From: Eledone cirrhosa
Lineage: Eukaryota
Reading direction: 5' to 3'
NCBI GenBank assembly: GCA_964016885.1
Contig: OZ024747.1
Coordinates: 48,360,001-48,424,000, forward strand
Length of the DNA: 64,000 nucleotides
Translations under genes and position numbers: made by a program
The notes under the pieces: model-generated
What the model saw: only the letters and a program-made list of their open reading frames with translations
Told to the model about the DNA's origin: nothing
Database searches by the model: none
In this document: piece by piece, positions 25,055-48,512 of the stretch
Layout: each line of letters begins with the position of its first letter
Numbering within the stretch: the stretch's first letter is position 1

Positions 25055-25872
25055 CTAGTACATCGTTCCTGTGTCAGTGTTGAACAAAAAGGTGACGTGG
25101 TTGCCTTAACACCGTACGGCATAAATCAGGCTGTCCGTTTGTTTACAAACAGACAAAGCGGGCGTTATAATAAACGTCCGCTAAACTGATACGTACATAT
25201 ATATATGTGTACCTGTATGTATATATATATATATATATATATATATATATATATATATATATATATATATATATATATGCATGCTACTGTACGTCTGTAT
25301 ACATATATGTATGTACGTATACATACATACTTACATTTAAGTAAGTGCCGTACTAAGAGTGAGAAATGAAATTTCGTTTCATTCTATTACAACTTATCGT
25401 TTTCGGTACGCCTGGCCGACTGAACTCACTCGATATGCAAATTAGGCTGCTCAGCCGTTAATTTTCATAAGGAAAGTATATACTTTTGAACGTTCAACCA
25501 TCTGGCAGAAGGGTATACGGTGCTGATGATAGCTAAGAAGCTTAAAACTAGTACATCGTTCCTGTGTCAGTGTTGAACAAAAAGGTGACGTGGTTGCCTT
25601 AACACCGTACGGCATAAATCAGGCTGTCCGTTTGTTTACAAACGGACAAAGCGGGCGTTATAATAAACGTCCGCTAAACTGATACGTACATATATATATG
25701 TGTACCTGTATGTATATATATATATATATATATATATATATATATATATATATGCATGCTACTGTACGTCTGTATACATATATGTATGTACGTATACATA
25801 CATACTTACATTTAAGTAAGTGCCGTACTAAGAGTGAGAAATAAAATTTCGTTTCATTCTATTACAACTTAT
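25055..25872 (+). mobile_element. Retrozyme-like tandem repeat (~493-bp unit, ~1.6 copies), family C
   Basis: 25055-25397 repeats at 25548-25872; HHR at the unit junction; octamer at 25435-25442; ends in (TA)n. Confidence 0.85.
25517..25559 (+). ncRNA. Minimal type I hammerhead, core mutated (GAAA read as AAAA)
   Basis: Stem I ACGGTG/CATCGT; CTGATGA 25523-25529; stem II AGCT-AAGA-AGCT; palindromic stem III ACTAGT; GUA site. Confidence 0.7.
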
Positions 25873-25954
25873 ATATATATATATATATATATATATATAT
25901 AAATTACGAAGTCTAAGTCAACAGGGTAAAATTGGCTTCGTTTATTCACATTCG

Positions 25955-26013
25955 CTGCTATATATATATTTCAGTGATAGTCATTATTCAACAGCTATGA
26001 CCTCATCAGGCAG
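25955..26013 (-). ncRNA. Type I hammerhead ribozyme
   Basis: Minus strand: CTGC-CTGATGA-GGT.C.ATAG...CTAT.C.ACT-GAAA-TATATATA-TA-GCAG; sits in a (TA)n-flanked element 25900-26270 with short inverted ends (25900-25936/26133-26170). Confidence 0.75.
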
Positions 26014-26555
26014 TTAAATTTAAACAGAAAAAAAAAGGAAAACATGATATTGTAATGGATTTTACCGTGTTAATTCGTTGACATGACCAGCTCCTGAGTG
26101 TATTGTTAGTCCTCTAATGAACTGGAAGATATGCCAATTTTACCCTGTTGACTTACACTTCTTATTTTTACATTACTCCGGAGTAAACAGACCAACTTGC
26201 CCACTTTGTTGAATGCTCCAACCTGCATACTGAGGTGTCGGTAAACAACCAACATAATACTCAAAATTTTATATATATATATATATATATATATATATAT
26301 ATATATATATATATATATATGCAAGGATATTTTCGAAACAGCGAGTTGGTTTTGAAATTATTAGAAATGTAAGCTATCACCGTATTTTGACTAAAGAAAT
26401 TAAAGAAATTATTTAGCCTGATAGTAGGGTTAAGAACCCTCGGAGAAATGGAAAAATGGGTGATGTGTTGGTATATATATATATAATCAAGGTTTAGCAA
26501 ATAAGAAAAAGTTTCAAAATAAATTTTAAAAAATTAACTTTAATTACTATGGTTA

Positions 26556-26639
26556 CCTTTACCGAATCGGTTTCGAGTCTCAAAAATAAACGGACAGTCC
26601 ATACGGCATCCGTTGCAAAGATAAACTCTCGTCAGAAGG
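26556..26639 (-). ncRNA. Type I hammerhead ribozyme with long stem II
   Basis: Minus strand: CCTT-CTGACGA-GAGTTT...AGACTC-GAAA-CCG ATT CGG-TA-AAGG; GUA site; TA tracts on both sides of the element. Confidence 0.8.
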
Positions 26640-27082
26640 ATCTTTTCACTCGGAGAATATAAAATTCCTGAGTTCAAATTACGAACTGGCGCTATTCAAA
26701 ATTGTTCCCGAGATGAGAATAAATGAAGTGGAAGCAATTCTTTCAAGTGCCGTGTGTAAAGATAGAGGCAGAGGCAGGGAGGCCAGTCTGCTCCCGCTAT
26801 AACTAGCAGCAGTCAGAACGACCAAATTTTTTCTCAACCAAGAGGAGCATAATAATAAAGTATATGTTCCTACACGCACAAGGCGCTTCGTGTAGGAACA
26901 TATACTTTATTATATATATATATATATATATATATATATATATATATATATATATATATATATATATATATATAATATATATAAGATCAAAATATATTGA
27001 TTTAAACATATATGATATGTTGATATGTTGATTTAAAACTGCACTATCCACAAGTGTTTTTAACCTTCATATCATGTCCTCC

Positions 27083-27153
27083 TATTTTATCTGATGACAA
27101 CACAAATGTTATTGCATGATGATATTTGTTTTTGAAATGCGCATAATAAAATA
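27083..27153 (+). ncRNA. Type I hammerhead ribozyme
   Basis: Stem I TATTTTAT/ATAAAATA; CTGATGA 27091-27097; stem II ACAAATGT/ATATTTGT (first pair mismatched); GAAA 27134-27137; palindromic stem III ATGCGCAT; element 26972-27280 lies between (TA)n tracts. Confidence 0.8.
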
Positions 27154-27384
27154 CATGGAACTCATTTAACCATCTTTTGATCTTATATATTATGTATACT
27201 CCAGTCCTACAAATTGTAGAGTGCTTCTTATTCGATATCTGCATTGCTTTATTGTACTACAATAAAACTCACCTCCTACATATATATATATATATATATA
27301 TATATATATATATATATATATATATATATATATATATATATATATATATATATAACATATATATATATATAAACATATATATAT

Positions 27385-46785: not shown

Positions 46786-46899
46786 TCAGTCAGTCAATGC
46801 TTGATATTCGATCATCATCCGATCATCTGTATTGTAGGCAGCGCCGCCCAGGTTTGAGGCCGAAGCGATGAGATTGACACCAGAGAAAGTATCACATTT
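46786..46899 (-). CDS. Candidate terminal exon of an unidentified host gene
   Basis: Acceptor tttcattttag| then KCDTFSGVNLIASASNLGGAAYNTDDRMMIEYQALTD*; non-repetitive and GC-richer than its surroundings; no homology recognised. Confidence 0.35.
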   Translation of the reverse strand, partial: KCDTFSGVNLIASASNLGGAAYNTDDRMMIEYQALTD

Positions 46900-47144
46900 C
46901 TAAAATGAAATTTTTGACATATATAGCTGTTATAATATATCTGGCATGGTCAGAGACTAAATCCTAAAGGCCAACTCGTTGATTAGCCCCAGGCCAGCCC
47001 CGAATCGAACGAGCAGACCCAGGAACAAAGGCATTCCAGTCCAACCACGACTACCACTTTTAGTGTATGTAAAACTACATTTAAATGGTGCAAAGATAAT
47101 GACGGTTTCTAACTGACAACTTTGAGTAATATATCTCATAATCC

Positions 47145-47330
47145 TAATAACTGTTTCTACTTTTGGCACAAGGCCAGTAATTACCCAGTACATTACTGGT
47201 ACTTTATTTTATCGACCCCGTAAGGATGAAAGGCAAAGTGAACCTCGGCGAGATTTGAACTCAGACCGTAAAGGGACGTAACTATGCATCAAAGCATGGC
47301 GCCCGACTCTCTACCGATATTGCCAATCCT
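47145..47330 (-). mobile_element. Major SINE copy
   Basis: Consensus match. Confidence 0.85.
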
Positions 47331-47788
47331 AATAACATGTGACAAAGATGGACATATGAATTATAGGTATAGTTCATCTGGCAGATGTCCATACAATTAC
47401 CGTCTACTCAATTTCAGTCTTAAGACAAGGTTGACCTCAGCAGGATAAGAATTCAGAAAGAGCCAGAATAAATACCATAAAGCATTCTATCCGTCGTTCT
47501 AACGACTCTGCCAAATCGCCGCCGCCAGTTTTGTTTGAAGGAAAGACAAAGGCCGATATATCTTGGCACTAATCAGGTGTTTCCTTTCAAATGTAAAGAT
47601 ATAGCAAGGCATTGTGTCCTACGTCCTAACAATTCCGTCAACTCCACACAATACACTGGTTCCTTATTGATCAACCCCGAAAGGGTGAAAGCAAACTTGA
47701 AATCAGACTGTAGAGAGCTAGAAGAAACAACGCAAAACGTTTTTTCAATGCTCTAATGATTCTGCGAGAATATATATATATTTATATA

Positions 47789-48237
47789 CGATATTAATAA
47801 ATGGAAACTATATTTATAAAACCATATTTATTTCATTATATATATTTCAGGGATACCAAATTAAATTATGGTATGCCTTCATCAGACAAAATACAATATA
47901 TAACAGTTTTACAAATAAGCGTTGACGTACCCTATTAAAATACAACCATTGTTTTTGGAAGTAATCCGGATTACTTCCAAAAACAATGGTTGTATTTTAA
48001 TAGGGTACGTCAACGCTTATTTGTAAAACTGTTATATATTGTATTTTGTCTGATGAAGGCATACCATAATTTAATTTGGTATCCCTGAAATATATATAAT
48101 GAAATAAATATGGTTTTATAAATATAGTTTCCATTTATTAATATCGTATATCTACTCCAAATACTTGTCGAGTGCTTTATATCAGTTATAAAAATATTTA
48201 CTTGTTGTATCCCAACAATTTTAAATAGAACTTTTGC
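47789..48237 (+). mobile_element. Palindromic HHR element, family A (second copy)
   Basis: Spacer-less palindrome centred at tcc|gga 47967/47968, arms ~179 bp, 3' tail matches 7298-7382. Confidence 0.9.
48042..48106 (+). ncRNA. Type I hammerhead ribozyme (mirror copy on minus strand 47829-47893)
   Basis: TATTTTGT-CTGATGA-AGG.C.ATACCA...TGGTAT.C.CCT-GAAA-TATATA-TA-ATGAAATA. Confidence 0.85.
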
Positions 48238-48438
48238 ATATATATTTATATATATATATTGAGGCTAGTTTGCATAATTGCAAACGAATAGAATGTTATT
48301 ATTAATATTCGAAAAACTCAGATTACATTTATTGTATTCAGCCATGTAGAGCGAAAAAAGTTTTCTTTTTTATTTGAATTTGGCAAAGCCGGCCATTTAT
48401 CGCTCGTATACAGGAAACTGACTGGCCAGTCTGCTGAT

Positions 48439-48512
48439 ATGCAAATCTGGCTGATCAGTGGATCTGCTAATATGCAGATCTGACTGATCAGTCAGTTTGC
48501 TAATATGCAAAT
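48439..48512 (+). promoter_or_regulatory. Octamer cluster (ATGCAAAT x2, ATGCAGAT x1), putative snRNA-type enhancer
   Basis: Positions 48439, 48472 and 48505 at 33-bp spacing; function inferred only. Confidence 0.5.

Follow-up and report, generated by a model that had tools for sequence, protein, structure and literature searches.

Candidate snRNA-type promoters in the hammerhead retrozyme families C, D and E of Eledone cirrhosa

The closest described relatives of the elements discussed here are the metazoan non-LTR (non-long terminal repeat) retrozymes (Cervera and de la Pena 2020, PMC7229834), non-coding, high-copy tandem units with type I hammerhead ribozymes and a short or palindromic helix III, found alongside Penelope-like elements (PLEs). 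According to a 2020 review (PMC7761336), retrozymes seem to have neither a promoter nor a motif that points to a mobilising partner, a view that leaves the newt and schistosome repeats as exceptions and puts the transcription of animal retrozyme circles at stake. A 64,000-nt stretch of the Eledone cirrhosa genome (assembly GCA_964016885.1, contig OZ024747.1, positions 48,360,001 to 48,424,000, forward strand), called the window below, contains three families of hammerhead elements, C, D and E, which share the features of metazoan retrozymes except that their units are 441-493 nt long rather than about 170-400 nt (PMC7229834), and which differ from the description in the review (PMC7761336) by a promoter cassette and a Penelope-type tail signature. 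The reading preferred here, with a probability of about 0.6, is that C, D and E all belong, as separate branches, to a single high-copy non-LTR retrozyme lineage, each monomer carrying a compact promoter of snRNA (small nuclear RNA) type, and that the productive RNA is made mainly by RNA polymerase II (Pol II). That the cassette is a functional promoter for one polymerase or another is, judging from the sequence comparisons, very probable.

The promoter of the Schistosoma Sm-alpha repeats is tRNA-like, and Coats, Zhang and Epstein are said to have described that of newt satellite 2 in 1994 as an octamer plus a proximal sequence element (PSE). Newt satellite 2 is a tandem hammerhead repeat like C, D and E, and its internal snRNA-type promoter is read by Pol II (as cited in PMC2220036 and PMC6765202), as is proposed for theirs, but in C, D and E the octamer abuts the PSE core, as in host genes of RNA polymerase III (Pol III), a TATA-like box follows, and the elements are dispersed, lie in (AT)n and have Penelope-type ends. 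Sm-alpha, a hammerhead repeat resembling a short interspersed element (SINE), carries its promoter at the cleaved unit's 3′ end, as would C, D and E, an upstream copy transcribing the next (PMC6765202); it is described there as transcribed by Pol III, whereas the C/D/E promoter would be gene-external and of snRNA type. EN+ PLEs share with C, D and E partial tandems, an inverted 5′-truncated arm, a tail from two start sites of the reverse transcriptase (RT), AT-rich or microsatellite targets and a promoter in the upstream repeat (PMC8557442, PMC11167929), whereas C, D and E have no open reading frame (ORF), tails of about 40-75 nt rather than 30-40 nt, and a putative promoter of snRNA type. The human H1 RNA promoter is likewise a compact octamer-PSE-TATA arrangement within 100 bp, in which an altered spacer is linked to Pol II use (PMC7949045), but it belongs to a single-copy gene and has a Staf site and a long spacer, while the C/D/E spacer is shorter than that of host Pol III genes. 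For a plant LTR retrozyme, a promoter is on record; a literature search that covered few subscription papers yielded no description of promoters of snRNA type in retrozymes of invertebrates.

Three related families of hammerhead elements

Families C, D and E consist of tandem units with periods of 493, 466 and 441 nt, respectively, each with one type I hammerhead, and no ORF of at least 150 amino acids lies over these elements in the window. Copies are dispersed and also form tandem arrays of up to 30 units among the matches listed. On the basis of tandem units, type I hammerhead, ribozyme core and copy number, they are classed as non-coding non-LTR retrozymes. Minimal hammerheads were detected by a custom scan rather than by Rfam, which gave no hits in the window at the gathering threshold.

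A direct search of the window found the octamer ATGCAAAT on the + strand at 25435, 32833 and 48505, and type I hammerhead folds place cleavage after 25553, 32963 and 48630, bearing out both the positions and the distances of 118, 130 and 125 nt given in an earlier, sequence-only reading of the window. A fourth case, which that reading did not list, is an inverted D copy with the octamer at 32106-32113 on the minus strand and cleavage at 31983. The two additional octamers claimed for family E have the claimed 33-bp spacing (48439, 48472, 48505), but the middle one is ATGCAGAT, with one mismatch, both in the window and in most of 30 E copies; the motif said to be shared by C and D downstream of the octamer is present, but the bases before its AAAG vary at three positions and not at two. 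The raw number of octamers in the window is ordinary (nine against 5.5 expected, reached by 16 of 100 shuffles), whereas their placement is not: the chance of an octamer at the observed position is about 5.6e-4 per hammerhead (13-nt window); because C, D and E share ancestry, their three octamer positions are not three independent trials. The octamer extends to a 12-mer, TATGSWAATNAG, which occurs four times in 128,000 positions, each time at one of the four element sites. There is no octamer in the 170 nt upstream of the eight other hammerheads listed in the window, all of other families, or upstream of the 5′-truncated D copy at 32497.

Pattern counts were made over the 3.0-Gb genome, whose microsatellite-rich look would suit an octopod. 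An octamer-NAG followed after 66-96 nt by a hammerhead core has 26,821 matches (0 for the reversed pattern), and 97 of the first 100 octamer-hammerhead matches listed are of C, D or E type; a shorter gap of 30-60 nt gave 131 matches, those listed being almost all deletion copies of the same families. Hammerhead cores with a helix II of 13-14 nt number 63,051 (against 251), so that many hammerheads must belong to families other than C, D and E. Copies picked by DNA similarity are called anchor hits; 58 of 61 for C, 52 of 59 for D and 32 of 41 for E have the octamer without any mismatch, counts that are not independent of the octamer because the similarity queries contained it. Most of the remaining hits are loose ones or fall on truncation junctions, while three of those for E have point changes in the octamer. 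A search with a variant pattern (608 matches against 3) retrieved the older relatives C2, G and H. C and D are 66% identical over 252 nt, C2 resembles both C and E, and the sole BLAST similarity between C and E is the segment spanning the octamer and the PSE-like core. By these similarities C, D and E are related lineages, not independent families.

The commonest variant of the hammerhead core is found in 46 of 61 C, 50 of 59 D and 13 of 41 E anchor hits, and the D and E hammerheads show compensatory changes in helix II. The C copy of the window has AAAA in place of GAAA at 25544, as does no other of the 61 C copies; the change being private, that copy is probably dead and the family intact. 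The palindromic helix III of C and D fits dimeric cleavage (PMC4209133). D units differ at 2-3 positions within arrays and at 7-57 between arrays, which fits rolling or multimer copying but local expansion as well. Between the two hammerheads of one D insertion (window 32467-32497 and 32933-32963) there is a compensatory pair difference in helix II, and either form is typical of a D subfamily, which suggests a heterogeneous template or a template switch by the RT. One 496-nt contig (466+30) spans one D unit and has the size expected of a closed graph cycle, which could come from tandem DNA or from RNA in circular form.

The octamer-PSE-TATA cassette and host snRNA-type promoters

The host promoter set consists of the upstream regions of U6, U2, U1, U5, U6atac, MRP, RNase P and U4 genes of the same genome, with one representative per distinct upstream type. 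The 12-mer TATGSWAATNAG lies at -77 to -79, with a TATA at -30, in all five retained U6/U6atac/MRP promoters, a count favoured by the omission of two U6 and seven U6atac loci whose flanks are retrocopy-like and without promoter features. It occurs in none of the 14 U1, U2 and U5 promoters, every one of which has YCAGT at -55 to -58 and a TATA word at -25 to -35. In two types of U4 promoter, which were out of sample, YCAGY stands at -57 and -58, and the octamer is missing from -77. An octamer was also expected in the RNase P promoter, and this expectation was ruled out: the RNase P RNA gene (L294:1430-1500) has a U1-type core, TCAGT, 32 nt before a TATA, hence Pol III-like spacing, and ends in T9. 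The distance from core to TATA is 23-28 nt in 13 of 14 host Pol II promoters and 31-33 nt in Pol III genes (the U6 core position being inferred). These spacing classes and the octamer-less RNase P promoter suggest that spacing, not the octamer, separates Pol II from Pol III promoters. Host Pol III genes terminate in T5-T10.

Some other features of the host genes were observed. The motif TTAYYTCCCTT, at about -250 to -290, is common to U1, U2, U4, U6 and RNase P genes (L031, L032, L046, L048, L061-L066, L294) in place of a distal octamer, and words like AATTAAAT near -90 are common to the Pol II snRNA genes. Several copies in the U6 array C19 (L037, L038, L040-L043) have a SINE-like insertion in their TATA region, and the window contains at least nine examples of a similar repeat of about 185 nt (4339, 5533, 9464, 9640, 29905, 42121, 47147, 50411 and 63674).

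In C, D and E the 12-mer is followed by YCASY at octamer+16, by a TATA word at +42, +43 and +45, and by CAG at +72, +72 and +73, respectively. The YCASY is at octamer+16 also in Cb, C2 and H, and in C, D, E, Cb and C2 the CAG follows this core by 56-57 nt, equal to the distance from core to start in host Pol II promoters. The core-to-TATA spacings are 26, 27 and 29 nt in C, D and E. With a position weight matrix (PWM) made from the 14 host Pol II promoters, offset +16 takes first or second place among 92 in 11 of 17 element copies. The octamer of the elements is proximal, as in host Pol III genes, and not a distal enhancer; the module of octamer and core is multimerised at 33 bp in E and at 33-41 bp in G. 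In 30 E copies the proximal octamer has 2 differences against 9.5 expected (p 0.034), the TATA none against 7.4 (p 0.006) and the catalytic core of the hammerhead 1 against 9.0 (p 0.010), all uncorrected for nine tests.

The sequence-only reading had proposed an snRNA-like promoter and a comparison of the motif shared by C and D with the host PSE. The promoter gains from the match to host promoters and from the conservation in E, and the proposed PSE does not survive: in folds TAATTTTCATA, imperfectly reverse-complementary to the octamer segment, pairs with that segment, and it was rejected as PSE in favour of the YCASY at octamer+16, which matches the core of host U1, U2, U4 and U5, leaving TAATTTTCATA mainly as the hairpin partner of the octamer. 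As H and others pair the octamer segment with different partners, it appears that the octamer is fixed and the partner adapts. Conservation of the octamer across copies, on which the same reading depended, is seen in the proximal octamer of E and is not significant in C, D and G.

Related and unrelated families extend the comparison. Among G copies found by hammerhead alone, 14 of 70 have the exact octamer 80-100 nt upstream and 24 of 70 have it within one mismatch, with a peak at 92-93 nt, many of the copies being truncated. The J/K lineage, with units of 310-314 nt and no BLAST hit to C, D, E or G at an E value of 0.05, has YCAGY 77 nt before the hammerhead core and a TATA 26-27 nt later, without an octamer (three untruncated copies); the chance of such spacing is about 0.006, for a window that was chosen afterwards. 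Families F and I (three loci) have an octamer without the core or TATA pattern. In yet another hammerhead family, CCAAT and TATA boxes lie immediately before the ribozyme and resemble an mRNA-type promoter (L316:6520-6720, L142:720-900, L154:590-760).

Proposed transcription and mobilisation

In the proposed mechanism, a POU factor and SNAPc would bind the cassette, and the start set by the octamer, PSE core and TATA-like box would lie some 46-58 nt ahead of the cleavage site, allowing the whole hammerhead to be transcribed. Octamer-assisted binding of SNAPc is established in human (PMC9652321) and may, by analogy, occur at these elements. Pol II would most likely make the productive RNA, reading into the next monomer, after which a pair of hammerheads, in C and D probably acting as a dimer, would excise unit-length RNA that may be circularised. 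A Penelope-like RT/GIY-YIG protein would then use two internal start sites to copy RNA, multimeric or circular, into (AT)n sites. With more than one unit copied, the promoter, although upstream of its own start, would be regenerated in every new insertion. The cassette suggests that these elements start their own transcription rather than rely on neighbouring genes.

The anatomy of the insertions bears on the last of these steps. Insertions often consist of two head-to-head arms that both end in (AT)n, one with a short end and one with a long end, and the 3′ ends are bimodal: 18 of 44 at 224-235 and 22 of 44 at 300-302 in D, 14 of 44 at 277-283 and 14 of 44 at 337 in C, and 20 of 68 at 140-151 and 25 of 68 at 164-185 in E. 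EN+ PLEs leave an inverted copy and a one-sided tail (PMC8557442), the tail being explained by two internal RT start sites (PMC11167929); the bimodal (AT)n ends and the head-to-head arms of C, D and E match this signature. The genome has an intact RT/GIY-YIG family, with many frames of 784 amino acids among the 150 of 11,344 candidates that were scored. The domain motifs of this frame, picked out by eye, are presumably those of RT and GIY-YIG. This young and abundant PLE (L320:6299-9501, L321:3887-7536) has a 4.7-kb tandem unit in which a 455-amino-acid frame overlaps the start of the 784-amino-acid frame, a two-ORF layout being unusual for PLEs. A diverged piece of its upstream region was recognised by eye at 48880-49110 of the window, after family E. 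Elsewhere, a 5′-truncated Penelope-like RT frame lies head to head with a C2 element with no (AT)n between them (L197:1250-1620; L221), possibly a chimeric insertion that names the partner. Family G was considered as a pseudo-LTR of adjacent PLE ORFs and rejected, an (AT)n run lying between; at one C2 junction such an arrangement may exist.

New insertions that hold the promoter must have been copied from RNA that crosses the whole unit. Runs of T5, T5, T4 and T4 are found in 27 of 34 distinct D monomers, T5 or longer in all 34, and T6 or longer at 18 of 30 E anchor hits (not de-duplicated); type 3 Pol III termination is 18-75% at T4, 74-95% at T5 and complete at T6 (PMC5725217), values that are human and not those of the host. 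The octamer-to-TATA distance is 42 in C, 43 in D and 45 in E, against 46-48 in all five host Pol III promoters. Together, the internal T5/T6 runs and the promoter spacing favour Pol II for the productive RNA. The cassette could instead be a type 3 Pol III promoter, or a dual one like that of human H1, giving short RNAs that stop at the first oligo-T run, with rare read-through to account for full monomers. The 12-mer beside a PSE is indeed the signature of host U6, U6atac and MRP genes, the long-arm 3′ ends coincide with T runs or adjoin them (D 300-302, E 164-185, C 337), the first 170-340 nt after cleavage have no T4, and the compact, octamer-containing H1 promoter recruits both polymerases (PMC7949045). 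The spacing of C and D nevertheless falls outside the host Pol III range, a 5-bp change of spacer inactivates human U6 (PMC7949045), and RNase P combines Pol III-like spacing with no octamer, which is thus not the determinant; T5/T6 runs are routinely crossed by insertions, whose arrays run to many units and whose 5′ ends are spread, and internal initiation by the RT explains the 3′ ends with no need for terminators. A cassette that serves Pol III, or Pol II and Pol III alike, in this way seems rather unlikely, though use of both polymerases, by analogy with H1, may occur.

Alternatively, the motifs might be inherited sequence with no promoter function, kept for RNA structure or protein binding, and transcription might reach the elements by read-through from host genes, which is the proposal of the 2020 review (PMC7761336). 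Shared ancestry of the families, base-pairing of the octamer segment in C, D, H and others, the commonness of TATA-like words in an AT-rich genome and the lack of significance of the selection tests in C, D and G would all be expected under this explanation. Against it stand an octamer that stays fixed while its pairing partner varies between families, the match to a host-specific 12-mer at near-identical TATA spacing, the multimerised octamer-core module of E and G, and the same core-TATA spacing in the unrelated J/K lineage, and it is considered improbable.

Besides the uncorrected p values and the human origin of the termination efficiencies, several results weigh against the preferred reading of a Pol II-driven snRNA-type promoter in C, D and E. 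The match at the PSE position is uneven by PWM (E high, C weak, D poor): scores are positive only for E and one G copy, those of C (-14.7) and D (-27.3) are equalled or exceeded at 3% and 18% of window positions, and offset +16 ranks tenth in D. The distal octamers, YCASY and predicted start of the 30 E copies are not conserved above background, and among 56 C, 51 D and 30 G copies the conservation of no motif reaches significance. The distal element of the host (about -260) has no sense-strand match within two mismatches in the C, D and E monomers; host U5 and MRP promoters likewise have none. Six G-related copies share an upstream region without the octamer. In the host the octamer marks Pol III genes, and the spacing of E, only 1 nt short of the host Pol III range, may suit either polymerase. 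The 5′ ends of insertions are spread, with no pile-up at the predicted start; the D arm of the window that begins there was accordingly dropped as proof of the start site, being one of 43 D ends. Seven loci of the intact PLE family show neither hammerhead nor octamer belonging to the PLE itself, and nothing that matches C, D or E over a long stretch.

As a broader and tentative proposal, held with less than even confidence, animal retrozymes may generally be self-promoting, with a cassette before the hammerhead as part of their design that was gained more than once in this genome: octamer-PSE-TATA in C, C2, D, E, G and H, PSE-TATA in J/K, and CCAAT-TATA in a third family. In this view the cassette of C, D and E may be a naturally occurring hybrid of Pol II and Pol III types. 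Copying of more than a unit would let a gene-external snRNA promoter survive retrotransposition, which is impossible for ordinary SINEs. The genome offers about 27,000 copies with a host-matched cassette, start predictions to the single base and a Penelope-type insertion signature. The candidate rules for Pol II and Pol III snRNA promoters of this host would be useful for small-RNA expression tools.

Features and further content of the window

The coordinates of the cassettes and hammerheads are given in the table, together with the J/K loci.

Table. Features of families C, D and E in window coordinates, and loci of the J/K lineage
Feature	Position	Strand
Family C insertion: one 493-nt monomer and partial second copy, (AT)n end	25055..25872	+
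C octamer 12-mer, as in host U6/U6atac/MRP promoters	25434..25445	+
C PSE-core-like TCAGC (octamer+16)	25451..25455	+
C TAATTTTCATA, hairpin partner of octamer segment	25459..25469	+
C TATA-like box; predicted start 25507	25477..25483	+
C type I hammerhead, cleavage after 25553; copy probably inactive (core change 25544)	25515..25561	+
Family D inverted short-end arm: octamer 32106-32113, hammerhead cleaving at 31983	31755..32443	-
Family D forward long-end arm: 5′-truncated copy (cleavage after 32497), full 466-nt period, (AT)n end	32439..33265	+
D two T5 runs (32712-32716, 32793-32797), which a full monomer transcript would have to cross	32712..32797	+
D octamer 12-mer	32832..32843	+
D CCACT at PSE-core position, weakest match of the three	32849..32853	+
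D TAATTTTCATA, hairpin partner of octamer segment, z -4.1	32856..32866	+
D TATA-like box; predicted start 32905	32874..32880	+
D type I hammerhead, cleavage after 32963, helix III palindromic	32925..32971	+
Family E insertion: 441-nt period, (AT)n end	48258..48814	+
E T4 and T6 run, upstream of the putative promoter inside the monomer	48361..48371	+
E array of three 33-bp repeats; octamer-like motifs at 48439, 48472 (one mismatch) and 48505, TCAGT after each	48430..48527	+
E proximal octamer 12-mer and TCAGT (48521-48525), exact host U1/U2/U5 core	48504..48525	+
E TATA-like box, without change across 30 copies; predicted start 48578	48548..48554	+
E type I hammerhead, cleavage after 48630	48589..48638	+
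J/K loci: host U1/U2/U5 PSE core and TATA	L142:2550-2760 (+), L136 (-), L318:7023-7500	

Other type I hammerhead elements of the window, without an upstream octamer, are located at 6910-7404, 47770-48259, 8481-8739, 25959 (minus strand), 27145 and 27281-28010, and 2413-2536; they are mostly perfect inverted structures, and those at 6910-7404 and 47770-48259 are 88% identical. The remainder of the window includes a broken remnant of a long interspersed element (LINE) at 13313-16770 with matches to endonuclease, RT and zf-RVT, and further broken LINE remnants at 34164-35620 (zf-RVT), 39177-40527 (RT) and 40807-41214 on the minus strand (RT-like by eye). Satellites with units of 24, 61 and 12 nt are found at 18743-22219, 55251-56717 and 57391-59482, respectively.

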